Part shown: piece by piece, positions 2,876 through 59,695 of the stretch
Layout of the letters: each line of letters opens with the position of its first letter
How positions within the stretch are numbered: the stretch's first letter is position 1
Source of the DNA: Candidatus Uhrbacteria bacterium
Lineage (GTDB): Bacteria > Patescibacteriota > Patescibacteriia > UBA9934
Direction: 5' to 3'
NCBI GenBank assembly: GCA_963822405.1
Contig: CAWGHH010000002.1
Span: 23,569-87,568, forward strand
DNA: 64,000 nucleotides
Made by a program: the position numbers and the translations under genes
Notes under the pieces: generated by a model
Databases searched by the model: none
What the model saw: only the letters and a program-made list of their open reading frames with translations
What the model was told of the DNA's origin: nothing

Positions 2876-2948
2876 CTATTCGATGTTTGGATTGAGTCAC
2901 TTTCTAGATAACCAATTTTTGAAAAGTGATGTGTTATCATACGAACAT

Positions 2949-3776
2949 ATGACGAACAATCACATTGCATTGTTTAAGGGCAAACAGATTCGAAAAATAG
3001 AACTCAACGGTGAGTGGTGGTTTTCGGTGGTGGATGTAATCGAGGCGCTCACTGATAGCGCTCAGCCGAGTGTTTATTGGAGCGTCATGAAGTCTCGCAT
3101 GAATAGTGAAGACGGAATTCAACTCTTTACAATTTGTAAACAGTTGAAATTGGAGGCCCCGGACGGGAAGATGCGCGAAACAGATTGTGCTGACACGGAA
3201 GGAATGTTTCGTATCATTCAATCGGTTCCATCCCCCAAGGCTGAGCCATTTAAGCGCTGGCTTGCAAAAGTTGGTTTCGAGCGCGTGCAGGAAATCGAGA
3301 ATCCCGAACTCGCTTCGAAACGAACTCGAATGCTTTACAAACTAAAGGGCTATCCAGATTCCTGGATTGAAAAGCGCATGCGGGGAATTGTTATTCGCGA
3401 GGAACTGACTGACGAATGGCAGAAACGAGGCGCAGAAGAAGGTGGGGATTACGAAATCCTAACAGCTGAAATTTCAAAGGCTACTTTTGGAGTGACGCCG
3501 ACTGAGTACAAGAAACTCAAAGGCTTGAAGCGTGAGAATTTGCGCGACCACATGGACGACTTTGAGCTGATTTTTAATATGCTTGGCGAGCGGTCTACAA
3601 CAGAAATCCATCGCAATGAAAATTCGAAAGGCGTAAAGAAATTAAAGGCTGACGCAAAAGCCGGTGGCGCTATTGCCGGGGGAGCGAGGAAACAACTCGA
3701 GAAGAAACTCGGAAGATCAATCGTGACGAAGAAAAACTTTTTGAAACCAGGGAAGAAAAAGAAATTGATCAAATAG
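2949..3776 (+). CDS. DNA-damage-inducible protein D-like (Bro-N domain) with Lys-rich C-terminal tail
   Basis: N-terminus (IALFKGKQIRKIE..WWFSVVDVIEAL) and the central region align by eye with recalled E. coli DinD. The ATG at 2949 is chosen over the upstream ORF start at 2883 because it matches the DinD N-terminus. Confidence 0.65.
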   Translation: MTNNHIALFKGKQIRKIELNGEWWFSVVDVIEALTDSAQPSVYWSVMKSRMNSEDGIQLFTICKQLKLEAPDGKMRETDCADTEGMFRIIQSVPSPKAEPFKRWLAKVGFERVQEIENPELASKRTRMLYKLKGYPDSWIEKRMRGIVIREELTDEWQKRGAEEGGDYEILTAEISKATFGVTPTEYKKLKGLKRENLRDHMDDFELIFNMLGERSTTEIHRNENSKGVKKLKADAKAGGAIAGGARKQLEKKLGRSIVTKKNFLKPGKKKKLIK

Positions 3777-4527: not shown

Positions 4528-5196
4528 ATGCGTCTTGCGCCCGTTGCTCTTGTTGTTCTTCTCTTGACTACAGTTGGCGCTGGTTGTACGAATCAGGCTC
4601 CAGCTGAGTCAGTTTCTCCTTCCACAGCCGTGAAAGGAGTAAGTGATCCTGCGGAGTCTTTTTCGAACCAACCAACAACCACACCTATGGCCACCTATAC
4701 CTACCAGGGACAGCTTCCAGAGAGTGAGATTACCAATAAAGTTGTGCGCATTACTACTGAGAAGGGTGATATTGTAATTGCGCTCTATCCAGACACTGCG
4801 CCACTAACGGTTTCAAACTTTGTTTCTTTGGCTGGCAAAGGTTTTTATGACGGTACTATTTTTCATCGCATCATTAAAGACTTCATGATCCAGGGTGGTG
4901 ATCCAACGGGCACAGGCATGGGTGGTCCAGGATATCAGTTTAAGGATGAGCTGAAGGATAAGCACACTTATGTTCGAGGCACAGTGGCCATGGCTAACTC
5001 GGGTCCGGATACAAACGGTAGCCAGTTCTTCATTATGCACGCTGACGTTCCATTGCCACACGCTTACTCTATTTTTGGAGAAGTTATTTCCGGGATGGAC
5101 GTAGTTGACGCTCTCGCTTCTACCACCGTAGACGGCAGTGATCGTCCACTCAAGGAACAGAAGATGACTAAGGTGACAGTTGAGGACGCAAAATGA
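4528..5196 (+). CDS. ppiB: cyclophilin-type peptidyl-prolyl cis-trans isomerase, lipoprotein
   Basis: [15 protein letters not shown]...[14 protein letters not shown] cyclophilin core. N-terminal signal peptide with lipobox VGAGC. Confidence 0.88.
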
Positions 5197-6602
5197 AATC
5201 AATAACGCAAAAACATTTCTACCAGTATCTCAAGTGTCCGTCATGGATCGCTCATGACGCTAAGGAAGCCAGACTTGAGAACAAGCTAAAAGACCGTCTG
5301 CAGCAGGACGGTCTTTTGTCGTCACATGAAAAGGAATTATTGAAGGGTCGCGACGTAATTGACGTCGGGGTCGACCCATGCGTCGACCCTGGCCACGGCG
5401 ACGTCGAAGAATTATTCGCGCGTACGCTTGAAGAAATGAAAAAAGGGACGCCTACTATTTATGGGGGAGTTCTGGTTCATGGTCGATTTGTGGCCGAACC
5501 GGATTTGCTTGAACGCGTGGAAGGGAAGTCAAAGCTTGGCAAATATTATTACGTAGCTTGTGACATAAAGCGATCAAGTAGGCTCAAAGAAGAATACAGA
5601 CTACAGGGCTGTTTTTACGCCGAACTTTTGAATTTGATTCAGGGCACTCGACCACTCCAAGGCTACATCATGCATCCTAATAAGGAGGTCGAGGCTTACT
5701 TGCTTGAGGAGACTGCGGTGAAATACCGGCTTACGCTTGATGCCATTGAGCGAATAATGGACGGGGAAGAGGAGCCTCATTTTTTGACCAGCGATTGTAA
5801 ACAGTCGCCATGGTTTTCTATTTGTAAGCAAGGCGCTATTGAATGTGACTCGCTGTCTAGACTGAATAGAATTTGGCGCAGTGAAGTTAGAATATTTGAA
5901 GAAGCTGGATTTAAAACTGTCACAGATTTTGCTAGACAAAATCCTGACCTAATTGCCGCGCGTACTTCTGGAATCACTAGGGACAGAATAGACTTTTTAC
6001 ATCTGCAGGCGCGAGCATTACTCGAAAACAGATTTCTCAAAGTCGGCTCGGTTGATCTGCCCGAGAGCGATCTCATTCTTGTGGTCGATATCGAAAGCGA
6101 TCCGTTGCGCGACGTTCACTATTTGTTTGGCGTACTCGAAAAAGGTGACGGCATAGATGTCTATCATTCTTTCTTAGCGAAAGACCCGAAAGACGAGCGC
6201 CGAGCTTGGGAAGACTTCATTGCTTTCATGAAGAATTATCCTGGCGTGCCAATTTATCATTACGGTTGGAGCGAGCAAGCTACATTTAAGGAGCTTGGCG
6301 AAAAATATGCCACGCCAATTGAAACGCTTGTCATGCTTGAAGAGCAGGGTGTTGATCTATTAATTCGGTTACGCGAAGCAGTTGTCTTTCCGTTGTCTTT
6401 CTATTCGCTCAAAGACATTGCGCAGTTTCTAGGTTTCAAATGGAGACATGCAGATGCCTCTGGTCTTAACTCCGTTCTCTGGTTTAACGAGTGGCTGACA
6501 AAGAAGGACGAGTCTGCACTTAAAGACATCATCGAGTACAATGAAGACGACGTCCGTGCGACTCTCGTTTTGATCGAATGGGCACAAAAAAACCTGAAGT
6601 AG
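5193..6602 (+). CDS. RecB-like nuclease, TM0106 family (RNase H-like C-terminal domain)
   Basis: 469 aa; C-terminal [11 protein letters not shown]...[17 protein letters not shown] exonuclease-like motifs. Carries one in-frame family-A palindromic repeat, translated as [10 protein letters not shown]. Confidence 0.55.
5367..5390. repeat. palindromic repeat family A, copy A1 (GGGGTCGAC-CCATGC-GTCGACCC), in-frame inside the nuclease CDS
   Basis: Perfect 8-9 bp inverted arms around a 6-nt spacer; same unit as 6603, 27827 and 28487. Confidence 0.85.
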
Positions 6603-6624
6603 TGGTCGACCCATGCGTCGACCA
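6603..6624. repeat. palindromic repeat family A, copy A2 (TGGTCGAC-CCATGC-GTCGACCA), intergenic
   Basis: Begins 1 nt after the nuclease stop codon and 9 nt before the next start; the hairpin could also act as a terminator. Confidence 0.85.
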
Positions 6625-6632
6625 AATCTCTT

Positions 6633-7442
6633 ATGCGAACACGCCCTCTCACTTGGAAATCTTTCTGGCCTCTTTTCCTAATTTTGATCATCGCTGGCGT
6701 CCTCAAGATCAAGACGCATTTTTCGCAACCAGTCGTGCCAACGGCTACTGTGCCGGCGGTGACGCATGAAGAAATTGTCGAGGTGCCAACCACCCCGACC
6801 GAAAGCGCGGGAGTGCCCGCGCCTGCAACCTCCCCCCAGCCCCCTCCTTCTGAAGGAGGGGGAGTAGGCGAGCATCCTGCCGAGTTCAACCTCGCCGTTC
6901 CGTTTTCATCACAGGCGCCGTTCATGAAATGGGACGCGTATCATGAGGAGTCATGTGAGGAGGCGTCGATTTTGATGACGCTCGAGTTTTATAAAGGCGC
7001 GAAGTCTGTTGATCCACAATTTGCCGACGACGAATATTTGAAAATAACAACGCTTGAAGATTCACTTGGTTATGGCTTGAGCATGACTGCCGAACAGACA
7101 GTCGACATCATTCAAAAGTACTCCGACTACTCGGCGCGCGTGATTGAGAATCCAACCGTCGATCAACTCAAAGAACTTCTAGTTAAGGGCGAGCCGATCA
7201 TCATTCCCGCCGCTGGTCGCAAGCTCGGCAATCCGTTCTTCACTGGTATTGGTCCGCTCTATCACATGCTCGTTATTCGTGGCTACACAAAAGACGGCAA
7301 GTTCATCACAAACGACCCCGGCACCCGCCACGGCGAAAACTACACCTACGACGCCTCCGTCCTCATGAACGCCATCGGCGACTGGAACAACGGCGACCCC
7401 GAACACGGCGCAAAACGCGTTGTGATTATTGAGTCAAAATAG
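6633..7442 (+). CDS. peptidase C39-like domain protein, membrane-anchored with Pro/Thr-rich linker
   Basis: N-terminal TM segment; C-terminal domain resembles the recalled C39-like/YvpB family. The linker carries the family-B palindrome, translated as SPQPPPSEGGGVGEHP. Confidence 0.5.
   Translation: MRTRPLTWKSFWPLFLILIIAGVLKIKTHFSQPVVPTATVPAVTHEEIVEVPTTPTESAGVPAPATSPQPPPSEGGGVGEHPAEFNLAVPFSSQAPFMKWDAYHEESCEEASILMTLEFYKGAKSVDPQFADDEYLKITTLEDSLGYGLSMTAEQTVDIIQKYSDYSARVIENPTVDQLKELLVKGEPIIIPAAGRKLGNPFFTGIGPLYHMLVIRGYTKDGKFITNDPGTRHGENYTYDASVLMNAIGDWNNGDPEHGAKRVVIIESK
6841..6861. repeat. palindromic repeat family B, copy B4 (CCCCTCCTTC-T-GAAGGAGGGG), in-frame in the peptidase linker
   Basis: 21-bp perfect palindrome; extended similarity to copy B5 covers 6832-6873. 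Confidence 0.8.
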
Positions 7443-7534: not shown

Positions 7535-8695
7535 ATGAAAATCGCAATGATAGGACAAAAAGGAGTACCGAATATCTTTGGCGGGGTTGAAACCCACGTC
7601 ACGGAATTAGCTACTCGACTAGTAAGACTTGATAATGACGTAATTGCTTACGCACGTTTTTGGTACACGCCACGCGGTACAAAGATGTTTAATGGCATCC
7701 GCGTTGTTCGTTTGCCAAGCATAAAGACCAAGATGTTGGATGCTATTTCGCATACCTTTCTTTCAACCATGCACGCATGTTTATTTGTGCGCCCTGACGT
7801 TTATCACTTCCACGGCGTAGGCCAGGCGTTACTTGCTTGGATCCCACGCGTCCTCGCGCCTCGTGCTCGAGTTGTTGTGACATTCCACGCCATTGACCGC
7901 TTCCACGATAAGTGGAATCCATTTGCGCGTTTAATGTTGCATTTGGGCGAGTATTGCGCAGTTACTTTCCCGCACGAGACCATTACGGTGTCGAAAGTCC
8001 TTCGCGACTATGTGAAGAAGGAATACGGTGTTCGCGCTACATATATTCCTAACGGAATTTCCCCTCGTCGCGCTTCTGCTGATCCAATTCTACTTAAGCC
8101 TTTTGGCCTTGAGCCGTTTGGTTACATTGCGGTCGTATCACGCCTTGTTCGCCACAAGGGTCAGCACACGCTGATTTCAGCTTGGCAGAAAGCGCGTGAA
8201 CTCCGCCCAGAACTATTTATGGATTTGAAGCTCGCCATTGTTGGCGACTCCGCCTTTACGGATGCGTACGTTCGCGAACTTAAGAAGATGGCTAAGGGTG
8301 ATGACTCGATTGTCTTCACTGGTTATCAACGTGGTGAAACTCTTGAATCCATTTTTATGGGCGCTCGATTCATTGTTCACCCATCTATTAGTGAAGGTTT
8401 GTCGATTGCCATCCTTGAGGCTATGAGCTACGGCAAGGCGGTTATTGCTGCGAGCATTCCTGAGAATATGGAAGCCCTCGGCGATCACGGTATCCCGTTT
8501 AAGCCGGGTAGGGTTAACGAGCTTGCTGATAAAATAGTCGAGCTAACAGAAGACCCAATGAAGGCCGCTGGTATAGGCCATGTAGCCAGACACTACGTAG
8601 AGGACACATTTAACTGGGATGCGATTTCGAAGAAGACACTTCACGTGTACGAGGAATACGCGAACCAGGCACAACCGGTTCTCGCGACTCGATAA
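7535..8695 (+). CDS. glycosyltransferase family 4
   Basis: N-terminal GT4 fold (MKIAMIGQKGVPNIFGGVETHV) and C-terminal EGLSIAILEAMSYGKAVIA motif. ATG 7535 is preferred over the TTG at 7526. Confidence 0.82.
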   Translation: MKIAMIGQKGVPNIFGGVETHVTELATRLVRLDNDVIAYARFWYTPRGTKMFNGIRVVRLPSIKTKMLDAISHTFLSTMHACLFVRPDVYHFHGVGQALLAWIPRVLAPRARVVVTFHAIDRFHDKWNPFARLMLHLGEYCAVTFPHETITVSKVLRDYVKKEYGVRATYIPNGISPRRASADPILLKPFGLEPFGYIAVVSRLVRHKGQHTLISAWQKARELRPELFMDLKLAIVGDSAFTDAYVRELKKMAKGDDSIVFTGYQRGETLESIFMGARFIVHPSISEGLSIAILEAMSYGKAVIAASIPENMEALGDHGIPFKPGRVNELADKIVELTEDPMKAAGIGHVARHYVEDTFNWDAISKKTLHVYEEYANQAQPVLATR

Positions 8696-9802: not shown

Positions 9803-10933
9803 GTGTCCAACTTATTTTCACAATTAAAGAGTTTGAAAAATAACCCCCAAGCTGGGGCTCTTTCTCTATCTGAGCATGAGACGGCTAAGGCTCGTCTCCT
9901 TTCCCGCGTGAGTGCAGACCTGCCAGCAGGCAATGAATCCAAGTCTTATGTTTCCTGGTATGTCAGTTCTTTCATTTCTAAGCCAGTGACCGTTGGCGTA
10001 GCGGTAGTGACAATTTTTACGGGAAGTTTGTCTACGGTAAGCGCTGCGTCTTCCAGTATTCCTGGCGATACCTTATATACGGTGAAGCGCATTACAGAAC
10101 AGGCACAGCTAAAACTGGCCTCACTAGACCGTCGAGCGATCCTTCACACGGAGTTCGCAGAACGCCGGTTGCGGGAGGCAGTCGAACTGCGGTCAGCTGA
10201 CACGGTTGACTCAGCTCATCAGACACTCGCTAAAACAGCCATGGTTGAGTATGCCTCAGAATTATTGCAAGCCTCGGCTGATCTGAAAAACTTGAAGAAC
10301 AATGTTGGTTCCTCGGCAGCTCTCGCAGTTGTCACAGATGTCCAGAACAAGATTGATTCAATGAAGGCGGTGATTGAGGAAACGGCTTCCACTAACTCTA
10401 CTTCAGCTGCTGGCACAGAAACTGTTGACGCCAAGCAAGCAGTAAAAGAAACCCAGGAGGTTGCTACCACGGTTGCGGTAGACGTACATGAGCAAGAAGC
10501 CACTGATAAATCTAGCCAAGAATTAAAGGCGATGTTTACAAAAGAACTTGGTTCTATAGAAGCCAGGCAGACCTTTGACGAACATAGACTGCAAACTATT
10601 GAAAAGAACGTGATCGGAAATGAGATGTTTGAGGGCGTGGCGGGAATTCCAGACAGTGATGATCTAAAAAGACTGAACTACGTTATTAAGCAAACCAAGC
10701 TCCAGATTCCAGAAGCCATGAATGGCTTTGCCGCTGGGGGATACAGAACAGCCTTCGCCACACTTCAAGGAGTAGACCAAGAACTGCTGACACTTGAAGC
10801 AAAGATTGCTGAGGTAGAAATCCTGATCATGCAAACTAGAGACGCTTCTGAGAAAGCGGGGTTAGAAACCCCGCCTTCCGAAACGCCGACATCCGATCTG
10901 GAAACCCCGCCTTCTGCGGCGCCAATGCCATAG
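9803..10933 (+). CDS. putative anti-sigma factor-like membrane protein (DUF5667-like, coiled-coil)
   Basis: Immediately downstream of the ECF sigma; one TM segment (VTVGVAVVTIFTG), then a long coiled-coil region. The C-terminal ETPPSETPTSDLETPPS tail is encoded by a GC palindrome. Confidence 0.5.
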   Translation: MSNLFSQLKSLKNNPQAGALSLSEHETAKARLLSRVSADLPAGNESKSYVSWYVSSFISKPVTVGVAVVTIFTGSLSTVSAASSSIPGDTLYTVKRITEQAQLKLASLDRRAILHTEFAERRLREAVELRSADTVDSAHQTLAKTAMVEYASELLQASADLKNLKNNVGSSAALAVVTDVQNKIDSMKAVIEETASTNSTSAAGTETVDAKQAVKETQEVATTVAVDVHEQEATDKSSQELKAMFTKELGSIEARQTFDEHRLQTIEKNVIGNEMFEGVAGIPDSDDLKRLNYVIKQTKLQIPEAMNGFAAGGYRTAFATLQGVDQELLTLEAKIAEVEILIMQTRDASEKAGLETPPSETPTSDLETPPSAAPMP

Positions 10934-15371: not shown

Positions 15372-15944
15372 ATGGACAGCCTTTTGAGCAAAATCTATCA
15401 GTCACAAAAAACGATCCTTACTAGTAAGGATTTGGCTTTGATTTGGCGAGAAACTGATCAAAATAATTTAAAAACGAAAATTTCATACTACGTAAAGCAA
15501 GGGTCGTTACTCCGTTTATCTAGGGGAATTTTCGCGAAAGATAGTAACTATTCTCCCAGGGAGCTGGCCACGAGTGTATATACTCCGTCGTACATAAGTT
15601 TTGAAACAGCGCTTCGTGACGCTGGCATGATTTTTCAACATCACGATACTATTTTTGTGGCTGGGCCATGGTCTAAGACGGTGCGCATTGACAAGACGTC
15701 TATTGTATTTCGGAAACTTAAAGAGAGCGTATTGTATAACCAGGAAGGGATAGAAAGAAACGAAACATATAGTATTGCTTCACCAGAGCGTGCATTTTTA
15801 GATATGATTTATCTTTTTCCAGAATATCACTTTGATAATCTTCGAGTATTAAATTGGGAGAAGTGCTTCGAATTAGTAAGAATATACAGCAATGCACAGC
15901 TGGAGAAGCGGTTAAGAAAGTATCAAAACATTTATGCTAAATAG
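15372..15944 (+). CDS. AbiEi-like antitoxin/transcriptional regulator (type IV TA)
   Basis: 190 aa; overlaps the following AbiEii-like gene by 11 nt. N-terminal wHTH-like region plus a C-terminal domain of AbiEi size. The assignment rests mainly on synteny. Confidence 0.55.
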   Translation: MDSLLSKIYQSQKTILTSKDLALIWRETDQNNLKTKISYYVKQGSLLRLSRGIFAKDSNYSPRELATSVYTPSYISFETALRDAGMIFQHHDTIFVAGPWSKTVRIDKTSIVFRKLKESVLYNQEGIERNETYSIASPERAFLDMIYLFPEYHFDNLRVLNWEKCFELVRIYSNAQLEKRLRKYQNIYAK

Positions 15945-16644
15945 AGAAAAGCACCAACTGATCATGGGGCGTATTTTGCGTGATATTTACGCTGACGCTT
16001 CGATTGCTTCATTGTTGGGTTTCAAGGGAGGCACCTGCGCGTATTTTTTTTATGACCTTCCAAGGTTTTCGGTAGATTTGGACTTTGATTATTTAGGAGG
16101 GGATGACACGGATAAGCAGTTAGTATTTGAGAAGTTGGGTAAGATCCTGGAGCAATACGGTCAGCTTAAGGATAGTTGTATCAAACTTAAAACAATATTC
16201 TTCCTTCTGTCTTATGGTGACAGTGATCACAATGTAAAAATTGAAGTAAGTACAAGGATGAACATTCCTAATTTTGGTGATCATTTTGAACTGAAAGAAT
16301 ATCTTGGTATTTCTATGCTAGTTAGTAAGCAACCATATCTTTTTGCGAGTAAGCTTGCGGCACTTACAACGCGAAGTGAGATGGCCACACGTGATATTTT
16401 TGATATCTGGTACTTTGCGAAGAGTAACTGGGATATTGATAGCGAGGTGCTCATTTTGAGGGTCGGAAAGAGTGTGAAAGACCATCTATTGGCATGCATT
16501 ACTGTTATCGAAGGAGTTAAGGACAATCAAATCCTCTATGGGTTAGGGGAGCTTGTCGACGAAAAAGGGAAGACATGGATCAAGAATCATTTACGAGATG
16601 AGGCAGTTTTTATGCTGAAAAATTATTCTTCTGTGTTGAGATGA
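15934..16644 (+). CDS. AbiEii/AbiGii-family nucleotidyltransferase toxin (DUF1814)
   Basis: LGFKGGTCAYFFYDLPRFSVDLDFD nucleotidyltransferase motif (GG..., D.D); 236 aa. Confidence 0.78.
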   Translation: MLNREKHQLIMGRILRDIYADASIASLLGFKGGTCAYFFYDLPRFSVDLDFDYLGGDDTDKQLVFEKLGKILEQYGQLKDSCIKLKTIFFLLSYGDSDHNVKIEVSTRMNIPNFGDHFELKEYLGISMLVSKQPYLFASKLAALTTRSEMATRDIFDIWYFAKSNWDIDSEVLILRVGKSVKDHLLACITVIEGVKDNQILYGLGELVDEKGKTWIKNHLRDEAVFMLKNYSSVLR

Positions 16645-24005: not shown

Positions 24006-24339
24006 TATGATATTTCAAATTGCACTCGTAGTATTTGCAGCCTTCGCCATTTATAAAACTTGGATTCAATATTCAAAAAAAGAAGCGTCCAAATATTGGG
24101 CGATTGCTTTTTCGTGTTTGTGGCTGATAGTGATTGCCGTGGCCCTCGTTCCAAATTTGGCCAACGTGCTCGCGAACCTTGTCGGCATTGGTCGCGGTGC
24201 GGACGTGATTGTTTACTCGGCGATTGTAATTCTGACGTATACGGTTTATCGACTAATGTTGAAGCAACAGAAGTTGTCTGCGGAGATGACGGAACTTGTT
24301 CGCGCGGTAGCCATTGAGAAAGCCAAGAAAGCCAGTTGA
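23995..24339 (+). CDS. DUF2304-family small membrane protein
   Basis: Two TM segments plus a C-terminal amphipathic helix; its position directly after a GT2 gene is the usual context for DUF2304. Confidence 0.55.
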   Translation: MLANMIFQIALVVFAAFAIYKTWIQYSKKEASKYWAIAFSCLWLIVIAVALVPNLANVLANLVGIGRGADVIVYSAIVILTYTVYRLMLKQQKLSAEMTELVRAVAIEKAKKAS

Positions 24340-24351
24340 TCCTCCCCCCGA

Positions 24352-24374
24352 CCCCCTCCACTTCGTGGAGGGGG
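24352..24374. repeat. palindromic repeat family B, copy B5 (CCCCCTCCAC-TTC-GTGGAGGGGG), intergenic
   Basis: 10-bp perfect arms; the flanks 24341-24382 resemble copy B4. Lies between the DUF2304 stop and the GT4 ATG at 24392. Confidence 0.8.
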
Positions 24375-24391
24375 AGGAGCTCACCAATTCT

Positions 24392-25504
24392 ATGAAAATA
24401 GCTATTGTTACCCCTGTTTTCCCTCCTTATAAGGGTGGTATTGGGCATGTGGCCGAGGCACAGGCTAATTCTTTGAAGGCACTAGGACATGAGGTGGTTG
24501 TGTTTGCGCCGTCGACCATGAAGCCATGGTTTTCTTACGGTAATGCCTCCATAACTCCACAACTTCTTTCTAAACTTTATAACTTTGATCTCATTCACGT
24601 TCACTACCCGTGCTACGGAACGGACGTCTTCGCGGCACTCGCCTCGATCGTGCATAAAACGCCCCTTGTGCTCACGTATCACATGAAAGCGGTGACGAAT
24701 GATTGGCGCAATATAATTTTTACTTTACACCGTTGGTTCATTGAGCCGATAATTTTCAAGATCGCTAAAATAGTGTTTGTCAGTACGTTCGAATATGCCG
24801 AGGCTTCCGGTATTCAGCATCCTCATCTTGTCGAAATGCCCTTCGGCGTAGACGGCGCGCGCTTCGCACCCGGTCCGGGTGGCGCGACCTTCCCCCTTCC
24901 AGGGGGCTCGCCCGTAGGGCGGTCTACGCCCGAGGGACCAGAGGGGGTCGCAGGGGCGCGCCTCCTCTTCGTGGGTGGTCTCGACCGCGCACACGACTTC
25001 AAAGGCGTCGACGTTCTTCTCCGAGCCTTTGCCACGCTTCCAGCTTCGGCGAGTTTACTTATTGCCGGCGACGGTGATCTTCGACTATTCTACGAGAGTC
25101 TCGCGCGCGATCTTAAAATTGCGGATCGGGTACAATTTCTTGGTCGAGTTTCTGACGAGGACTTGCCGAACGTATATCGCTCAGCTGATGTTCATGTATT
25201 GCCGAGTATCAATGGTGGCGAGGCTTTTGGTTTAGTTACACTTGAAGCCGCTGCCTCGGGTTTGCCGTCAGTAGTTAGCGACTTGCCTGGGGTTAGAACG
25301 CTCGTCGTAAAGGGTCAGACTGGATACTTGGCCAAGCCTGGAGATATTGATGACTTAGCTTATCAACTGCAAAAACTAGTAGATCACCCAGAAGACGCCA
25401 TAATTATGGGGGCAGCGGCTAGAGTTAGGGTCATGGAAAGTTACGACAGCGGGGCTATTGCGCGCTCATTACTCCAGGCGTATAACGGGATTCTGAAGGT
25501 ATGA
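24392..25504 (+). CDS. glycosyltransferase family 4 with an in-frame palindromic-repeat insertion in the interdomain linker
   Basis: MKIAIVTPVFPPYKGGIG N-terminal GT4 motif and C-terminal E..E region (GEAFGLVTLEAAASGLP). The insert FPLPGGSPVGRSTPEGPEGVAGAR corresponds to repeat B2. ATG 24392 is preferred over the upstream ORF start at 24314. Confidence 0.78.
   Translation: MKIAIVTPVFPPYKGGIGHVAEAQANSLKALGHEVVVFAPSTMKPWFSYGNASITPQLLSKLYNFDLIHVHYPCYGTDVFAALASIVHKTPLVLTYHMKAVTNDWRNIIFTLHRWFIEPIIFKIAKIVFVSTFEYAEASGIQHPHLVEMPFGVDGARFAPGPGGATFPLPGGSPVGRSTPEGPEGVAGARLLFVGGLDRAHDFKGVDVLLRAFATLPASASLLIAGDGDLRLFYESLARDLKIADRVQFLGRVSDEDLPNVYRSADVHVLPSINGGEAFGLVTLEAAASGLPSVVSDLPGVRTLVVKGQTGYLAKPGDIDDLAYQLQKLVDHPEDAIIMGAAARVRVMESYDSGAIARSLLQAYNGILKV
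24892..24950. repeat. palindromic repeat family B, composite copy B2 (CCCCCTTCCAGGGGG...GCCCGTAGGGC...GAGGGGGTCG), inside the GT4 CDS
   Basis: Shares the CCCCCTTCCAGGGGG and AGAGGGGGTCG ends with B1/B3, with an extra internal hairpin. Confidence 0.75.
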
Positions 25505-26730: not shown

Positions 26731-28695
26731 TTACTCAAACACCATCACTGTCACCTCGTGGTCGCCGAAGATCCAGGATGTGTCCGTGATGGTTTTTGAT
26801 TGTTCGATGACACGTTTGGAATCCCACCAATAATCGTCCATGACAAAGAAGACGAGCTGTGCGCCGGTGAGTGTGCGAGCTTGATCAACGGTTTCTTTGG
26901 TTGGTGCTTTGGCCATGTCGAGATAAAGCTGATAAAGGGGGCCACCGGTCGGGATAGGATAGAAATAGATATCGTCGTGATAATATTTTTTGAAACCGAG
27001 TTTTGCAATTGCGGCAGATGATGTTGCTTGGTTTGCAAGGACAACGTAATCGCGTCCCGCCGCATATTTATCAATGGCCGCCACCGCGTCAAAGTCAGCT
27101 TGCGTCACATTGAACCCCGCGGACGATGCATACGCGTCATACCGCGGGTACGCGCCATACACGGTCGACACGAACACGACGCCGATGACGACAATGGCAA
27201 ACGCGCCCCGCGCGTTGTAAGGGCCGACTTCTATGTCGGCCCCTCTCTCGATCGCATGTGGAATGTATGGCGTCAGGAACAACACCGTCAGGGTCAGCAT
27301 TCTGGCCGCAAAATCCGTCCGTTCATACGAAATCAAAAACGGGAAATCAAAGAACAACCCGAGGATAAGGAAATTCGAAAACGCAATCCCCGCACAAATC
27401 AACGGGACGAATTGTCGTAGGGGCCGACTTCTATGTCGGCCCTCTTGGAGCATCCGCCACGCCCCCACAATCCCCAAAACAACGGTCACGATAAATATAT
27501 TCCCGATGATCAGATACGCCGTATCACCCCACGCATTAAAATGCGTTCCGACAAATGCGGTTAACGGCAGAGCGGTCAGGTCGTGGATGGTCGGCAGGTG
27601 CAATCCAATCGGCATGTGCGCCTTCATGGATTGCACGATAAATGCCGCCGGCAATGCAACGGCCGATGCGATTGCGACGATGATCGTCGCGGCTGTAAGG
27701 GTCGACTTCGATGTCGACCCTCTCTCCGCCACGTACATCATCCCCACGAAAAACACCGCCGGCAACCCCGCAATCGGATGTGCACATAGCGCCGCGAGTG
27801 CGAAAATACCCGTGATCATCGTGGTAGGGGTCGACCCATGCGTCGACCCATCCGGATCCGCGCGTGTCGTGCCCAACAACACCGCCATCGCCGTAAACAC
27901 AAACGCCAACGCTTGTGGGGTGGTCTGCACGAACGCGGCGATAGGCAGAACCAACAACATCGCCGCCGTAAGGGTCGACTTCGATGTCGACCCTTGATTG
28001 GTCCGCATGAGCACCGCCGCCGGAATCAACGTCGCCGCCAAAAGTGGCACGAGGTACACGTCCACGAGCATTAGTGGCAGGTGGAGCACCTTCAGCGCGA
28101 ACAATTCGATCACATATTCGCCAATGTAGTAGAGGGGTTTCGGGGTGATCGTTCCAAAGTCGGCAATATGTTGGATGGTTGCGCGATGCAAGAATGGATC
28201 GAACCCATACCCAAGCGGATATACCGTCGCTACAAATGACAACGCCGAGAACAGGGTCATGACAATCACGCCGAAGGCCATCGCGGTTGTAAGGGTCGAC
28301 TTCAATGTCGACCCTCTCTTCATCATCACCGCCGCACACACCGTTGGTATGAACAGCCACACCAGGTTGGCCGGCGAAATCACCAACCACGGCGAGCGTA
28401 CCGATTCGAGAATCGGATGAGTGAGGATAGCGTGCCACCACGCGCCGAGGGACGCGACTGCAATTACCGCGAGGAAAACCGCTGTAGGGGTCGACCCCCG
28501 CGTCGACCCTCGTTGAACTGTGACCAAGGGAAAGGATTTTGATAGCAAGAAAATCGCCCCGATCGCCATAGCTGCGCAGACAATCAGTCCGACAGTTGTC
28601 ACATTCATGACATAATAGAGAAAAGTAGCCAGAATGCTATAAATAGCTAAACCGGCGCCAGACCAAATGATTCCTTGAAGAAAGCGATTAAACAT
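26731..28695 (-). CDS. polytopic integral membrane protein (GT-C-like?) carrying seven in-frame family-A palindromic repeat insertions
   Basis: 654 aa with more than 12 hydrophobic segments. The peptides [55 protein letters not shown] and RGADIEVGP map exactly onto repeats A9 to A3. Confidence 0.6.
   Translation of the reverse strand: MFNRFLQGIIWSGAGLAIYSILATFLYYVMNVTTVGLIVCAAMAIGAIFLLSKSFPLVTVQRGSTRGSTPTAVFLAVIAVASLGAWWHAILTHPILESVRSPWLVISPANLVWLFIPTVCAAVMMKRGSTLKSTLTTAMAFGVIVMTLFSALSFVATVYPLGYGFDPFLHRATIQHIADFGTITPKPLYYIGEYVIELFALKVLHLPLMLVDVYLVPLLAATLIPAAVLMRTNQGSTSKSTLTAAMLLVLPIAAFVQTTPQALAFVFTAMAVLLGTTRADPDGSTHGSTPTTMITGIFALAALCAHPIAGLPAVFFVGMMYVAERGSTSKSTLTAATIIVAIASAVALPAAFIVQSMKAHMPIGLHLPTIHDLTALPLTAFVGTHFNAWGDTAYLIIGNIFIVTVVLGIVGAWRMLQEGRHRSRPLRQFVPLICAGIAFSNFLILGLFFDFPFLISYERTDFAARMLTLTVLFLTPYIPHAIERGADIEVGPYNARGAFAIVVIGVVFVSTVYGAYPRYDAYASSAGFNVTQADFDAVAAIDKYAAGRDYVVLANQATSSAAIAKLGFKKYYHDDIYFYPIPTGGPLYQLYLDMAKAPTKETVDQARTLTGAQLVFFVMDDYWWDSKRVIEQSKTITDTSWIFGDHEVTVMVFE
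27221..27243. repeat. palindromic repeat family A, copy A3 (GGGCCGAC-TTCTAT-GTCGGCCC)
   Basis: GCCGAC variant of the unit; preceded by GTAA; read in-frame as GADIEVGP on the minus strand. Confidence 0.85.
27421..27442. repeat. palindromic repeat family A, copy A4 (GGGCCGAC-TTCTAT-GTCGGCCC)
   Basis: Identical core to A3 but read in a different codon phase (GRHRSRP); preceded by GTAG. Confidence 0.85.
27699..27720. repeat. palindromic repeat family A, copy A5 (GGGTCGAC-TTCGAT-GTCGACCC)
   Basis: Preceded by GTAA; translated as RGSTSKSTL. Confidence 0.85.
27827..27849. repeat. palindromic repeat family A, copy A6 (GGGGTCGAC-CCATGC-GTCGACCC)
   Basis: Identical to copy A1 at 5367; preceded by GTAG; translated as DGSTHGSTP. 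Confidence 0.85.
27972..27993. repeat. palindromic repeat family A, copy A7 (GGGTCGAC-TTCGAT-GTCGACCC)
   Basis: Identical to A5; preceded by GTAA; translated as QGSTSKSTL. Confidence 0.85.
28293..28314. repeat. palindromic repeat family A, copy A8 (GGGTCGAC-TTCAAT-GTCGACCC)
   Basis: Preceded by GTAA; translated as RGSTLKSTL. Confidence 0.85.
28487..28509. repeat. palindromic repeat family A, copy A9 (GGGGTCGAC-CCCCGC-GTCGACCC)
   Basis: Preceded by GTAG; translated as RGSTRGSTP. Confidence 0.85.
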
Positions 28696-28714: not shown

Positions 28715-29302
28715 ATGGAAGAAACAGCGCAAACTACCGTGCCGAAGCTTTATTTACATGACAAACTCATGAAAGTGCTAGTTTTGCCTTTTGTGCCAGC
28801 ATTTGTGAGGCCAAACCATGTAACAGCCTTCCGCCTTCTTTTTACGCCGGTCATTTTTTATTTGTTCATGATCGAAAACTTTAACCTGGCGGTTCCGGCG
28901 TTTATTGTGGCGGCGTTTTCAGACGCGCTCGATGGTTCGCTGGCCAGGGTCAGGAATCAGATTACGCCTTGGGGAATATTTTTTGACCCTTTGGCTGACA
29001 AGCTGCTGATTGGCGGCACCGCACTTTTGGTTGCGATTAAATATTACCACCCAATAATAATTATCGGTGCTTTGGTTTTGGACGTTATGCCCTCAATTTT
29101 GTGGGCTAGTAACAAGCGAGGCGGAATGATCATGATGGCCAACTGGTGGGGAAAAACAAAAATGATCCTCCAGGTGGTAAGTATGACAGCGTTGTTGATC
29201 GGAATAATGACGAATACTCCGGATCTAATAATTTTTGGTCAGGTGACGCTTGGGATTTCGCTCATCTTTGCCTTTATTGCGGTCATTACGTATTCCTTGT
29301 AG
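28715..29302 (+). CDS. CDP-alcohol phosphatidyltransferase family protein
   Basis: DALDGSLAR...GIFFDPLADK signature (D-x2-DG-x2-AR...G-x3-D-x3-D); multiple TM segments. Confidence 0.78.
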   Translation: MEETAQTTVPKLYLHDKLMKVLVLPFVPAFVRPNHVTAFRLLFTPVIFYLFMIENFNLAVPAFIVAAFSDALDGSLARVRNQITPWGIFFDPLADKLLIGGTALLVAIKYYHPIIIIGALVLDVMPSILWASNKRGGMIMMANWWGKTKMILQVVSMTALLIGIMTNTPDLIIFGQVTLGISLIFAFIAVITYSL

Positions 29303-29305
29303 GAT

Positions 29306-30964
29306 GTGGCCGTTATGCGGGGATTTTTCAAAGACTTTATTCGCAGCGTTATTGTCATCGCTTTCTTTGTTTCGACGCTCTGTTTGAGCGCGTACGGCGA
29401 GCGTGTTTTTGTTTCGCCGGATGAGAATTCGGCATTTTTCTTTGCTAAACAATTTGCAAATGTTGGTTCACTTTCGGTTCACGAAAGCCTTAACACGACA
29501 GTCGGAGGAATTATTCATCCGCGTAGTACGGCGGTTTTGGGTGAAGTCATTCTCCCTGGTAGTTTTATTGGCTTACCAATTTTGGCCGGGCTATTTATTA
29601 TTCCATTCGGCGATGCTGGTGGTTTATTGCTGACGCCAGTTCTAGCATTATTTGGTATTTTGGCCTTTCGAACATCAATAAAGAAAGTGTTCGAGGATGA
29701 GGCTTTGGCGGATCTTTCGGCGCTGTTGCTCATGGCGCATCCGGCATATTTGTATTTTTCTGGTCGAGTCATGATGCATAACATTGCCTTTGTCGACTTT
29801 CTTATCTTCGCAGTATATTTTGCGGTCACTCGTCCATTCGGTACGAAATCATTATTCACAAGAGAGTTTCGTCGGTTAGAGTTTATTCTTTCCGGCATTA
29901 TGGTTGGCACGGCGCTTTTTCTGCGGATCAGTGAGGCTCTCTGGGTTCTACCGATTGCTTTTGGTCTATTTATATATTTCCGAAACAATCTTGGTTGGCG
30001 AAACATTGTTTCATTTTTCTTTGGTTTGGGTTTAATGTTAACGGTGATCGCTGGGGTCAATTCGTGGGTTTATGGTTCTCCATTTGCTACCGGATATACT
30101 CTTCCAACTGTTTCTGTTACCACTTCTTCTCTTAACCCGTCACCCGTCACTTATCGCCTGCCTCTCTTTGGTTTTCACCCTCGAGCAATTCTACGTAACG
30201 TCTGGGATTACGGCGTAACTCTTTATCCGTGGATGACGGTTCTCTCTATCCTTGGTTTTTGCCTTTTAGCGTTTAGGCGATTCGAAAAGAATAAAGCCTG
30301 GAAAGCCTTGACGATTATTTCTATTTTTACGTCTGTTATTTTATTTTCGTTGTACGGTAGTTGGAATTTTTTCGACAACCCAAACGCGGCTCTCGTAACA
30401 ATCGGTAATTCGCACGTTCGCTATTGGCTCCCGGTATTTATTTTATCGATTCCATTTACGTCATATCTAGTTGTGAGCCTGTGGCGCTTGGTGAAGGAGT
30501 TTGGCGACGCCAAACCCTTACACCGATTATTGCGCGCATCCGTCCGCGCCCTCCTCATTCTCGCTTTTCTCGCTGGACTTGTGGCGAATGTCCGGTTAGT
30601 TTTTTACGGTCACGATGGGATTCTGGCCTCTCGCGCCGCAATGAGTTCGTTTGTCAGTAAACGTACCCGTCTGCTCATGATTACTGAGCCGGAATCGGTT
30701 ATTGTGGTTGATCGGGCTGATAAATATCTCTTTCCTTATCGTCGAGTAATTGCGCCGCTCCGTGACGAGAGAACTTATTCTGCACTGCCAGAGCTTGTTA
30801 AAGATGTGCCAACATATTACTTTGGTATTACATTCCCACAGTCAGACCTCGACTATTTGAACGGCGAGAAACTGAAAGCGCTTGGTCTTAAAATTGATCT
30901 TGTAGAAACAATAAACGAAGAATCGCTTTATAAATTCTCACATGCGCAAACAACTATTCGTTAA
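29306..30964 (+). CDS. polytopic membrane protein, putative GT-C-fold glycosyltransferase (GT39/ArnT-like)
   Basis: 552 aa with more than 10 TM segments in the N-terminal two thirds and a soluble C-terminal domain. The family is not recognised with confidence. Confidence 0.45.
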   Translation: MAVMRGFFKDFIRSVIVIAFFVSTLCLSAYGERVFVSPDENSAFFFAKQFANVGSLSVHESLNTTVGGIIHPRSTAVLGEVILPGSFIGLPILAGLFIIPFGDAGGLLLTPVLALFGILAFRTSIKKVFEDEALADLSALLLMAHPAYLYFSGRVMMHNIAFVDFLIFAVYFAVTRPFGTKSLFTREFRRLEFILSGIMVGTALFLRISEALWVLPIAFGLFIYFRNNLGWRNIVSFFFGLGLMLTVIAGVNSWVYGSPFATGYTLPTVSVTTSSLNPSPVTYRLPLFGFHPRAILRNVWDYGVTLYPWMTVLSILGFCLLAFRRFEKNKAWKALTIISIFTSVILFSLYGSWNFFDNPNAALVTIGNSHVRYWLPVFILSIPFTSYLVVSLWRLVKEFGDAKPLHRLLRASVRALLILAFLAGLVANVRLVFYGHDGILASRAAMSSFVSKRTRLLMITEPESVIVVDRADKYLFPYRRVIAPLRDERTYSALPELVKDVPTYYFGITFPQSDLDYLNGEKLKALGLKIDLVETINEESLYKFSHAQTTIR

Positions 30965-32387
30965 GGGCGTGATTGTAGCTGTTCCGATACTTCTCTTCTT
31001 TGGTCTTCTGTATAACTACTTGGGTCTTTCCGGTGAAAAAATAGTTCATTACACAGTTGGCGACTCTTCGCCCTTTGTTCAGAGCCTTTTGCCGAGCGAT
31101 CGGGTGAGTAAAGTTGAAAATGGTTCCGTGAAACTACTTGAAGAGCCGGTCTATTTTTCCGTTTTTGCGCCGCCTGGAAATTGGCAGACAGCAGACGTTA
31201 AGATTGATTTTCAAACAGGCGATCAAGCTATTTTAGAGCTTGGGGTATTGAGAGATCTATTCGCCCAAGCATTTGATTTTAAGCCATTAGCAAATACTGT
31301 AGTTGAGCACTTAGAAGCGAATGGTTGGGTGGGGAGACCGCTGGCACAGTTAGGCGAGAACGTTAATGTGTTTATTCGTAAGGAGTTTGTCGGCGCGCCA
31401 CCTTCGTCAATTAAGGATGCGCAAATCGGTATTTATAAAGCATCTCTGCCGTGGTCGCCTCCACCGGGCGCTACTGCTTCAAAAAAAGATAAGACCTATT
31501 CATTGATGTTACGCGGTCCGCACGAGCTTTTTACGGCTATTGGCGATAAAGAACCGTTGCGAATCTCAATACTCTTGGATGATCTGAATGAGGCGGTTGG
31601 TTCTGACGAGGGAGCAATTAGAATCTATTCGCAAAAAGGAGGCATGGTTTCAGAAACAGTATTTGCTGATGACGGGAATACGACTGCGGATGGATCATTG
31701 AGTCCTTCAAGAACAGTTGTCGTCGCGCCAGACGGTTTGCCTGCCGGTACGTACAGAATCGTTCTTTCCGGTACGTCAGACATTGTTTTTGATGAATTTG
31801 TTACCAAACAAAACTATCTAGTTGTTAAGAACTCAATGACGATTAAGCCACATACTGGCGCAATTGCCTTGAACACGAACGCAAAAAAGATAACGGTAGA
31901 GCCGTTAGCTGTTGGCGCCCTCGGCACTACGGTGTTTGGTCAGACCAAAATGGCGCTTGAGAAAGTTAATGAAAAAGTCAGCGGAGTTTCTATTGATCGT
32001 GATGTCTCATCACTCATCCTTCCGGGAGGCGGCGTGAAGATCACGGGCGAGGGATTCTTTGCGCTGGCTAACGCCGCATTCTTCATTCCGGAGCCGGCCG
32101 GATTCTCAAACTTTCTAGCCGCGCCAGATCGTTTCAGAGCAATTGTCGCTTTCTTCCCGCCACAGATGCGAGACGGCCATTGGCGCACTGCTACTACGAA
32201 GTACGAATTATCAACGCTCGCTAAAGAACGTGGAGCGTATAAGTTTGTTATTTCGGCGCCGCTCGTGCATGAGACTGATGGGGGAGTTGAAATTCATTCT
32301 ATTGACGTAACATTCAAGAAACCACAAACAACATTCCGGTCGCTGTTTTCATCGCTTAAGTCTTTTGCTCGTGATCTCATTTGGTAA
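30942..32387 (+). CDS. hypothetical membrane-anchored extracytoplasmic protein
   Basis: N-terminal TM segment (VIVAVPILLFFGLLYNYLGL), then 450 aa with no recognised domain; overlaps the upstream GT-C-like gene by 23 nt. Confidence 0.5.
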   Translation: MRKQLFVKGVIVAVPILLFFGLLYNYLGLSGEKIVHYTVGDSSPFVQSLLPSDRVSKVENGSVKLLEEPVYFSVFAPPGNWQTADVKIDFQTGDQAILELGVLRDLFAQAFDFKPLANTVVEHLEANGWVGRPLAQLGENVNVFIRKEFVGAPPSSIKDAQIGIYKASLPWSPPPGATASKKDKTYSLMLRGPHELFTAIGDKEPLRISILLDDLNEAVGSDEGAIRIYSQKGGMVSETVFADDGNTTADGSLSPSRTVVVAPDGLPAGTYRIVLSGTSDIVFDEFVTKQNYLVVKNSMTIKPHTGAIALNTNAKKITVEPLAVGALGTTVFGQTKMALEKVNEKVSGVSIDRDVSSLILPGGGVKITGEGFFALANAAFFIPEPAGFSNFLAAPDRFRAIVAFFPPQMRDGHWRTATTKYELSTLAKERGAYKFVISAPLVHETDGGVEIHSIDVTFKKPQTTFRSLFSSLKSFARDLIW

Positions 32388-32969: not shown

Positions 32970-33284
32970 ATGGAGGTAATTGTTTATTACACCGACACGC
33001 AAGAGTTTATAGCAGATCTTGATGATGTGCCGACTGCCAAGGTGATCAGTCTCATTCGTGCTCTTCGGGTCTGCGGAAGTGACATGAGCATGCCACAGAG
33101 CAGAAGTCTTGGCGGAGGTCTCTTTGAATTGCGGGCAAGAGGCAAGAAGGAAGTCCGACTTTTTTATTGTTTCCATCGTGATTCCGCGATTATTCTTCAT
33201 GGGATTATTAAGAAAACCTCAAAGATTCCCAGGAATGAAATCGAGATCGCAAAATCACGTATGGGAAAAATTGCTGGATTATAG
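32970..33284 (+). CDS. type II toxin, RelE/HigB-like (phage Gp49-like family)
   Basis: 104 aa; LFELR...RLFYCF...AIILHGIIKKTSKIPRNEIEIAKSR matches the recalled Gp49/HigB-like toxins paired with XRE antitoxins. Confidence 0.6.
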   Translation: MEVIVYYTDTQEFIADLDDVPTAKVISLIRALRVCGSDMSMPQSRSLGGGLFELRARGKKEVRLFYCFHRDSAIILHGIIKKTSKIPRNEIEIAKSRMGKIAGL

Positions 33285-59329: not shown

Positions 59330-59695
59330 ATGGCACTTGCCGTATTGGATTCGAATGCTCTAATTTACCATGTGGGTGGATTGCAGACGATTCCCGATTT
59401 GCTCACGAGCACCTATGCAGTTTCCTCGGTTATTGTTTTTGAGTTATTGCGCTTTCCTGGGATGTCAAAACAGGAAGAGTCATCTTTAATCAAGGCTATT
59501 GATTATTGTGAGATTGTAGGTGTTACTGAGGCGATTGCTTTTCGAGCGGCTTTTTTGAGTCGGATACGTCCACGTGGTAAAGCTATGGATATATTTATCG
59601 CGGCAACTGCCCTGGAATTAGACATTCCTTTGATTACGGGTAACATTAAAGACTTTAAGAATATTCCCGGTCTTCAGGTTAAGAGTGAATTTTGA
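59330..59695 (+). CDS. vapC: PIN-domain ribonuclease toxin (VapC-like)
   Basis: VLDSNALIY (Asp1), FELL (Glu), DIFIAATALELDIPLITGNIKDF (Asp3/Asp4 region); 121 aa. Confidence 0.8.
   Translation: MALAVLDSNALIYHVGGLQTIPDLLTSTYAVSSVIVFELLRFPGMSKQEESSLIKAIDYCEIVGVTEAIAFRAAFLSRIRPRGKAMDIFIAATALELDIPLITGNIKDFKNIPGLQVKSEF

Follow-up and report, generated by a model that had tools for sequence, protein, structure and literature searches.

Introduction

Repetitive extragenic palindromes (REPs) are defined by a tetranucleotide head, GT(A/G)G, at the 5' foot of a GC-rich hairpin (Nunvar et al. 2010, PMC2817692; Di Nocera et al. 2013, PMC3733652), and repeats with this head flank RAYT genes (PMC2817692). 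Binding and cleavage of the single-stranded REP hairpin by a RayT has been shown for TnpA-REP of E. coli (PDB 4ER8; PMC3479197). Some REPs are translated. About 70 open reading frames (ORFs) of Opitutus terrae with in-frame GTAG REPs have been tabulated (PMC3733652, Additional file 3), and the GTAG-19 repeats of this species encode peptides as varied as GTGVPPV, HGRDARAT, TGGTPVP, WHGRPAR and GARASRP (PMC3733652), which means that they are read in several frames and on both strands. Here we describe a short palindromic repeat in a stretch of 64,000 nucleotides from Candidatus Uhrbacteria bacterium (contig CAWGHH010000002.1, positions 23,569 to 87,568), referred to below as the window. Seven of its ten copies in the window are within one gene, ORF 26731-28695. 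We consider it likely that the ten hairpins are REP-type palindromic repeats of the GTAG-headed superfamily that are translated in whichever frame they have landed.

The repeats have several features in common with GTAG REP/RAYT systems: a 4-nt head resembling GTAG on a GC-rich hairpin of 20-30 nt, sub-families distinguished by complementary changes and, on a related contig (L123), a RayT with adjoining REPs. Published intragenic copies are also in frame and give several peptides per family; intragenic, multi-frame REPs are already on record for O. terrae and Rickettsia. The habitat is different. Nine of the ten copies described here are in ORFs and seven are in a single gene, whereas published families are mainly intergenic with an intragenic minority. 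All window copies are single units, unlike the head-to-head dimers and REPINs of the published systems, and we saw no head-to-head dimers, doublets or REPINs.

Rickettsia palindromic elements (RPEs), reportedly described by Ogata and colleagues in 2000 and 2002, are said to belong to CGTC-type or other families, with RPE-1 about 100-150 nt long and encoding 30-50 residues. We know of no dedicated transposase for these elements. The resemblance to our repeats is in setting, since both are in-frame palindromic repeats in functional genes of a small, gene-dense genome and are tolerated in surface loops. The elements studied here are shorter, at 26-30 nt, add seven to nine residues, and have neither the length of RPEs nor the sequence of the Rickettsia families.

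Two other systems are also comparable. In the REPIN-RAYT system (Bertels and Rainey 2011, PMC3116915), hairpin repeats whose stems are kept paired are tied to a single-copy RayT that persists in a lineage, but REPINs are inverted REP doublets in intergenic DNA. Miniature inverted-repeat transposable elements such as Nezha and Correia (PMC10969869) are non-autonomous repeats that can be read through inside genes. They are 70-300 bp long and have terminal inverted repeats and target-site duplications, neither of which is present here, where the unit is one 22-nt hairpin.

We found no paper that describes REPs in the Candidate Phyla Radiation or Patescibacteria. What is new here is the host phylum, the near-exclusive intragenic habitat, the GTAA head, the presence of seven copies that mark seven successive inter-helix loops of one membrane protein, and the re-use of sites by different hairpin families among orthologues.

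Results

Ten copies of a palindromic repeat in the window

An identical 22-mer, GGGCCGACTTCTATGTCGGCCC on the plus strand, occurs at 27221-27242 (copy A3) and 27421-27442 (copy A4) and forms the palindrome GGGCCGAC-TTCTAT-GTCGGCCC. The pattern of the sister copies, GGGTCGAC-N6-GTCGACCC, has ten matches in the window with up to three mismatches, compared with 0.22 expected, and none of 100 shuffles reached this number. Placed in one orientation, the copies share one layout: a 4-nt head comes first, then an 8-bp stem of GGGYCGAC whose two arms enclose a 6-nt loop and, in many cases, a tail TCT. Five copies have the head GTAA, four have GTAG and one has GTCG, with the position of the head and the letters GTA conserved. 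These dimensions (8-bp stem, 6-nt loop, 22-nt core) are within those of the short GC-rich palindromes called REPs (20-40 bp, stem of 5-13 bp, loop of 2-20 nt), and sub-families with complementary stem changes occur here as in REPs. The location is not that of a typical REP, which is extragenic and usually just 3' of an ORF: nine of the ten copies are inside long ORFs and only the copy at 6599-6624 is extragenic. The ten copies are as follows, with the strand being that of the head, S1 to S7 the sites in ORF 26731-28695, and phases those of the coding strand.

27217-27242, plus strand: copy A3 at site S7, head GTAA, core GGGCCGAC.ttctat.GTCGGCCC; read on the opposite strand in phase 1 as RGADIEVGPY
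27417-27442, plus strand: copy A4 at site S6, head GTAG, core the same as in A3; phase 2, EGRHRSRPL
27695-27720, plus strand: copy at S5, head GTAA, core GGGTCGAC.ttcgat.GTCGACCC; phase 0, RGSTSKSTLT
27824-27849, plus strand: copy at S4, head GTAG, core GGGTCGAC.ccatgc.GTCGACCC; phase 0, core read as GSTHGST
27968-27993, plus strand: copy at S3, head GTAA, core GGGTCGAC.ttcgat.GTCGACCC; phase 0, QGSTSKSTLT
28289-28314, plus strand: copy at S2, head GTAA, core GGGTCGAC.ttcaat.GTCGACCC; phase 0, RGSTLKSTLT, with TGA in phase 2
28484-28509, plus strand: copy at S1, head GTAG, core GGGTCGAC.ccccgc.GTCGACCC; phase 0, RGSTRGSTPT
60574-60599 (core 60574-60595), minus strand: copy in murE, which reads GGGCCGAC.atcgaa.GTCGGCCC followed by TTAC on the coding (plus) strand; phase 0, SGPTSKSALT
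5364-5389 (core 5368-5389), plus strand: copy in a gene for a RecB-like nuclease of the TM0106 family, degenerate head GTCG, core identical to that at 27828; head strand and coding strand are the same
6599-6624 (core 6603-6624), plus strand: extragenic copy, head GTAG, core TGGTCGAC.ccatgc.GTCGACCA, with the outer pair changed from G:C to T:A

The head of the extragenic copy (6599-6602) supplies the TAG stop codon of the RecB-like nuclease gene (ORF 5193-6602), and the protein that ends at this codon aligns end to end with TIGR03491 (4-461 of 462).

The stems have a folding energy of -14 to -17 kcal/mol on either strand. We counted 21 copies in 216 kb of DNA from this lineage. We aligned 22 copies, taken from the window and from its relatives. 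Of their stem cells, 99.4% are paired, a figure to be read in light of the fact that these copies were preselected for at least seven of eight stem pairs. Three of the eight stem pairs have two-sided changes, for example T:A in 14 copies and C:G in eight, and the covariation score was reached by none of 500 shuffles.

An Rfam scan of the window returned three tRNAs and no match at the hairpins. A CRISPR or TIGR-like array is ruled out by the irregular spacing of the cores (107-299 nt) and their location inside a conserved ORF, and intrinsic terminators are ruled out as there is no T-run 3' of the stems on the coding strand.

The repeat is translated in three phases

Identical copies of the repeat encode different peptides. 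As the first-pass annotation of this sequence had stated, the A3 and A4 cores are in one ORF in shifted phases, with the first core base on the coding strand in phase 1 at 27221 and in phase 2 at 27421. The five copies with GTCGAC (27699, 27828, 27972, 28293, and 28488) are all in phase 0 and give G-S-T-x-x-S-T-(L/P)-T. The reading GSTxKST that had been given to all five holds for three (GSTSKST and GSTLKST); the other two are read as GSTHGST and GSTRGST. With three translation phases within one gene, this repeat is an element at the level of DNA and not a protein motif.

The same annotation described the element as open in several phases, which is correct in that four to six of the six frames are open in each unit, but A3 and A4 are closed in sense phase 0. 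Here the loop ATAGAA gives a TAG, and each of the two copies has taken one of the two phases left open. On the head strand, the TAA or TAG in the head always closes one frame, and the variant at 28293 has its TGA in phase 2. The further idea that openness is a special property that enables the element to enter genes was not borne out. Shuffles of the 30-nt units that kept composition averaged 3.9-5.2 open frames out of six compared with 4-6 in the real units (P 0.27-0.91), and 75% of random 8-6-8 palindromes with 75% GC stems have at least five of six frames open. Each copy occupies a phase that is open for that copy, as survival requires.

Phase usage is uneven. Of ten independent intragenic sites that the 8-6-8 family has in the 216 kb of lineage DNA, eight are in phase 0 (binomial P ~0.003 versus one third), although this is a small sample with seven sites from one gene. 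Reading in phase 0 gives linker-like peptides rich in Gly, Ser, Thr, and Pro. The character of the encoded peptide probably filters the surviving copies too, beyond the absence of stop codons.

Three antisense ORFs at 27233-27997, 27583-27789, and 27838-28074 had been attributed to the elements. All three exist, but removing 27 nt per copy lengthened the longest antisense run, from 258 codons with the seven copies to 270 codons. Antisense open runs in other genes of the window are 95-215 codons. The antisense ORFs reflect codon composition; the GC content at third codon positions of the host gene is 64%.

Seven copies are within a functional membrane protein gene

Two of the genes that host the repeat are described in this and the next section.

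26731-28695, minus strand: 654-aa multi-pass membrane protein with seven REP copies
59692-60993 (likely start 59698), plus strand: murE, TIGR01085 match at 2.9e-95, with one REP copy

The 654-aa protein has no Pfam or NCBIfam match. Among its 214 homologues, every match with a named source is from Patescibacteria, Parcubacteria, Uhrbacteria or an unclassified "bacterium", and an end-to-end alignment with 23 homologues contains 76 invariant columns. Comparison with seven orthologues over 538 ungapped codons outside the hairpin sites gave a ratio of nonsynonymous to synonymous divergence (dN/dS) of 0.08-0.16. Synonymous divergence (dS) was 1.4-1.9, so that synonymous sites are saturated. Synteny is conserved, with a CDP-alcohol phosphatidyltransferase gene on one side in six of seven orthologous loci and a GT4 glycosyltransferase gene on the other side, also in six of seven. 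The first-pass annotation would have given up its reading if this ORF were a pseudogene; the ORF is intact and the gene is functional.

The fold predicted by AlphaFold (AF2) resembles that of GT-C glycosyltransferases. In this model, which has a predicted local distance difference test (pLDDT) score of 75.5, the top structural match was AftA (8if8; E 1.2e-4, TM 0.40) followed by PglB and STT3. All seven copies are within short hydrophilic stretches between two hydrophobic segments. Five of the seven sites are modeled as coil, three of these with pLDDT <50, and the other two are at breaks between helices. Site S7 (A3) is between hydrophobic segments 426-457 and 490-518, with pLDDT <50 at residues 485-493; S6 (A4) is in the loop between segments 388-418 and 426-457; and S4 has pLDDT <50 at residues 283-289.

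The host gene is part of a cell-envelope glycan cluster (window 28715-32387) that includes the CDP-alcohol phosphatidyltransferase, several GT4 and GT2 glycosyltransferases and, in orthologous loci, dTDP-sugar enzymes. Two more large membrane proteins of 552 and 481 aa without a Pfam match are also encoded there. The orthologue of the 552-aa protein in L003 (loci and contigs of relatives are given as L numbers) contains a REP copy at 8538-8559 that is not present in the window.

The copy in murE

The copy in MurE is in a loop that has a helix on one side and, on the other, the conserved strand IGVHGSAGGGRD with which the C-terminal domain begins, and solved MurE-like proteins are five residues shorter at this loop. 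The site is filled in the window and in L125 (86% amino acid identity) and empty in L124, L126, and L127 (82-87%). The empty orthologues are 7-8 codons shorter, with the difference being eight codons (24 nt) for both L124 and L127. Between the two filled copies, the only difference is a compensatory stem pair, in genes that are 78% identical in nucleotide sequence.

Filled, empty and re-used sites among relatives

We compared the seven sites of the membrane protein gene in eight orthologues. Of the 56 combinations of site and genome, 30 have a perfect hairpin whose stem is 7 bp or longer. The orthologue in L001 does not contain S2-S5, with length differences of 24, 27, 42, and 21 nt (27 nt at S3). 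The S6 palindrome has decayed in L001 and L003. Stems at one site are often unrelated between orthologues. At S7, all eight orthologues have a hairpin built on at least six different stems (GGGCCGAC, GGGTCGAC, (A)AGGGCGGGG, GGATCGACG, CCCCCCTCTT, and CGTAGGGGAGGGTC), and several of these stem families recur elsewhere in the same loci, within other genes. A neutral palindrome that had been inherited would be expected to have decayed at dS above 1.4, so perfect stems imply continued replacement, or gene conversion or arm-to-arm template switching, or selection for the structure. In L002, the sites orthologous to those of A3 and A4 contain two different hairpins, and the identity of A3 and A4 points to recent homogenization inside the gene of the window. 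No target-site duplication, flanking motif or constant insert length was found in comparing filled with empty sites.

The third of the hairpin families that we noted in these loci, GCGGGGTT-N3-AACCCCGC, fills sites S3, S4, and S5 of the membrane protein in L128, L003, L130, and L129. It also occurs at L003 18902 and, in the window, at 10856-10874 near the 3' end of ORF 9803-10933. The second family, CCCCCTCC(TT/AC)-N3-(AA/GT)GGAGGGGG, is intragenic and has two copies in the window. One (6840-6862) is in a gene for a C39-like peptidase (6633-7442) and the other (24352-24374) is near the 5' end of a GT4 gene (24314-25504). In relatives, this family is present with a GTAG head at L003 14302 and at S7 of the membrane protein in L128. 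A single hairpin with a head at both ends, gtacGGACTTGGC.gac.GCCAAGTCCctac, is located at 1301-1321 inside ORF 1007-2068.

A RayT gene with adjoining repeats in a related contig

A metagenome scan for the variant specific to the window (GTAA head, TTCNAT loop) identified one contig, L123 (Ga0172379_10000144). This contig encodes a 196-aa protein that matches Pfam Y1_Tnp (E 2e-9, 38.1 bits, cutoff 23). An identical protein has the JGI name "REP element-mobilizing transposase RayT" and is listed by NCBI under a Patescibacteria metagenome-assembled genome (MAG). Four REPs of the same variant are at this locus in L123.

6378-6399: upstream of the RayT gene
6655-6676: in frame inside the RayT gene, EGADFNVGP
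6828-6849: in frame inside the RayT gene, EPTLKSAPT
7111-7132: GTAA head starts 4 nt past the RayT stop codon

Judged by its sequence, this related Patescibacteria contig has the association of REP and RayT that defines a REP-RAYT system.

The same transposase came up in a phmmer search with a RAYT-like consensus and the 4ER8 sequence, which found L035 and L123; regular expressions for the HUH and Y motifs, run over all loci, gave no match. L036 was considered as a REPtron because it has two inverted REPs 775 bp apart, and was rejected as the intervening ORF is not a transposase.

We aligned ten RayT homologues (39-82% identity) from Patescibacteria, Uhrbacteria, Scalindua, and Flammeovirgaceae. 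A REP-like peptide (GPTSKSAPT, GSTQRSTPT, VGADPRVCPDNMGEHTGSPL, and similar) directly follows the HUH motif in all ten, although the word-seeded search that collected them may have enriched for RayTs with such peptides. Six of the ten have a second REP-like peptide near residue 47.

The same motif in other lineages

A scan of one genome per species found GTAR-GGGYCGAC-N6-GTCGRCCC at 119 loci or more in many phyla. The matches listed, which do not extend to the lineage of the window itself, include Acidobacteriota, Nitrospirota, Chloroflexota, WOR-3, Oscillospiraceae, Planctomycetota, Bacteroidota, two Patescibacteria, and even a Halorubrum contig. Most of the matches listed are not deep in ORFs: the shorter open flank has a median of 36 codons and is below 30 codons in 54 of 130. 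By comparison, for all 12 exact-core copies in the window and the orthologous loci L002 and L003, the open flank is 60 codons or more on either side (median 196). This is a widespread type of REP that lives inside genes in the lineage of the window.

The loops CTTCAG, CCATGT, CCGTGT, and GACTCT recur across phyla in GTAGGGG(C/T)CGAC..GTCG(G/A)CCC. If REPs co-evolve with RayTs that are specific to a lineage, a REP sequence would not be expected to be conserved in this way across phyla. Another Patescibacteria MAG (L104, 883-950) has a copy of GTAGGGGTCGACCCATGTGTCGACCC that is in part duplicated in tandem and is read in frame on the head strand. It is inside an ORF of at least 790 aa whose flanking sequence GHRIPVWY resembles class I aminoacyl-tRNA synthetases.

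Mobile-element and defense-type genes in the window

The window also contains genes of the type found in mobile elements and defense systems. These encode a BRO-N domain protein (2883-3776), an AbiEii toxin of a type IV toxin-antitoxin system (15934-16644), a Gp49-like protein of the HigB type (32970-33284), and a PIN-domain protein directly upstream of murE (59330-59695).

Discussion

We propose that the REPs of this lineage are non-autonomous single-stranded DNA hairpin elements that would be recognized, and presumably spread, by a RayT transposase of the HUH/Y1, IS200-like type. ORFs make up 94.5% of the window and the median intergenic gap is 40 bp. With almost no intergenic DNA available, new copies would land mostly in genes. 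Purifying selection would then spare only those copies that change the length by a multiple of 3 nt, have no stop codon in the phase that is read, and are in permissive surface loops. The survivors would be those seen in the inter-helix loops of the GT-C-like protein, the interdomain loop of MurE, and a loop of the nuclease. The same DNA would be translated in the phase in which it landed, with the benign phase that is rich in Gly, Ser, Thr, and Pro being favored. By analogy with characterized RayTs, we infer that such an enzyme may mobilize the copies in the window. Survival filtering would explain where copies are found, and turnover, gene conversion or quasipalindrome template switching may keep the stems perfect.

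Several observations weigh against this proposal. Y1/HUH transposases (Y1_Tnp) were absent among 30 scanned window ORFs of 90-300 aa, L123 is not proven to be from the same species as the window, and the REPs that flank its RayT gene are in direct orientation, whereas those of REPtrons are described as inverted. GTAA, the head of half of the copies, is not among the published degenerate heads (PMC3733652). The length differences between filled and empty sites vary (21, 24, 27, or 42 nt), and neither an exact insertion boundary nor a target-site duplication can be defined, so that true transposition is not demonstrated; the copies may instead have formed de novo or through gene conversion. Lastly, seven of ten copies are in a gene that makes up 3% of the window (binomial P ~3e-9), so random landing followed by filtering is not sufficient. 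The clustering suggests additional local spread or insertion beside existing copies. Clustering of REPs is common in published families (PMC3733652).

The hairpins could instead be positively selected structures of the host gene in mRNA or DNA, acting for example as translation pauses between helices or as binding sites for a regulator, rather than being tolerated selfish repeats. We think this improbable. In its favor, perfect hairpins with stems of 8-14 bp are at S7 in all eight orthologues and at S3 in six of eight despite dS of 1.4-1.9, their stems have compensatory changes, and seven copies are clustered in one gene with each at a helix-helix junction. The occupancy of the sites does not fit well with such selection: it is polymorphic in close relatives, with four sites missing from L001 and three MurE orthologues empty, and distant homologues (37-47% identity) do not have such peptides at these loops. 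The repeat families that supply the stems at one site are unrelated and are found in intergenic DNA and other genes as well, and the motif is mainly extragenic across many phyla among the matches listed. Ten of 12 independent intragenic sites have the same orientation relative to transcription, but this bias is not significant compared with the 60:40 expected from stop codons (P ~0.08). A related and similarly doubtful idea is that hairpins are actively kept at fixed loops of the GT-C-like gene, with ribosome pausing between membrane helices or RayT-dependent control as possible functions. If true, active retention would explain why S7 has perfect hairpins with unrelated stems in every orthologue in spite of saturated synonymous sites, and why RayT genes contain in-frame REPs at a conserved position past the HUH motif.

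Selection might also act on the protein, so that the real feature is a loop peptide (GSTxKSTLT, for example) to which the palindrome is incidental. Five copies in the host gene and the copy in MurE do give similar peptides rich in Gly, Ser, and Thr, and phase 0 is over-represented. Against this, identical DNA yields unrelated peptides in three phases and on both strands, one copy (6599-6624) is extragenic, the stems are perfect palindromes with compensatory changes, and the repeat is abundant in non-coding DNA of other phyla among the matches listed. A protein-level motif is thus very unlikely. Equally hard to credit is accidental read-through, with ORF 26731-28695 a decaying pseudogene or the repeats artefacts of MAG assembly. 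The source organism is uncultured and no identical 654-aa product is in the protein collection, but the low dN/dS against seven orthologues, the columns that are invariant across all 24 homologues, eight independent assemblies (JGI, ENA, NCBI, and Logan) with the same synteny and with hairpins at the same loops, and the presence of a copy in the essential enzyme MurE argue against this.

Tolerated REP-type repeats, our preferred explanation, would extend the REP/RayT system to the Candidate Phyla Radiation. They provide a clean natural experiment in which selfish hairpin repeats persist in protein loops where non-coding DNA is almost absent. The occupied loops mark sites that are permissive for insertion in the GT-C-like glycosyltransferase and in MurE. 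For annotation, the recurring peptides are translations of REPs as opposed to motifs of the protein; they make loops look longer and may give rise to spurious similarity between proteins that are unrelated.

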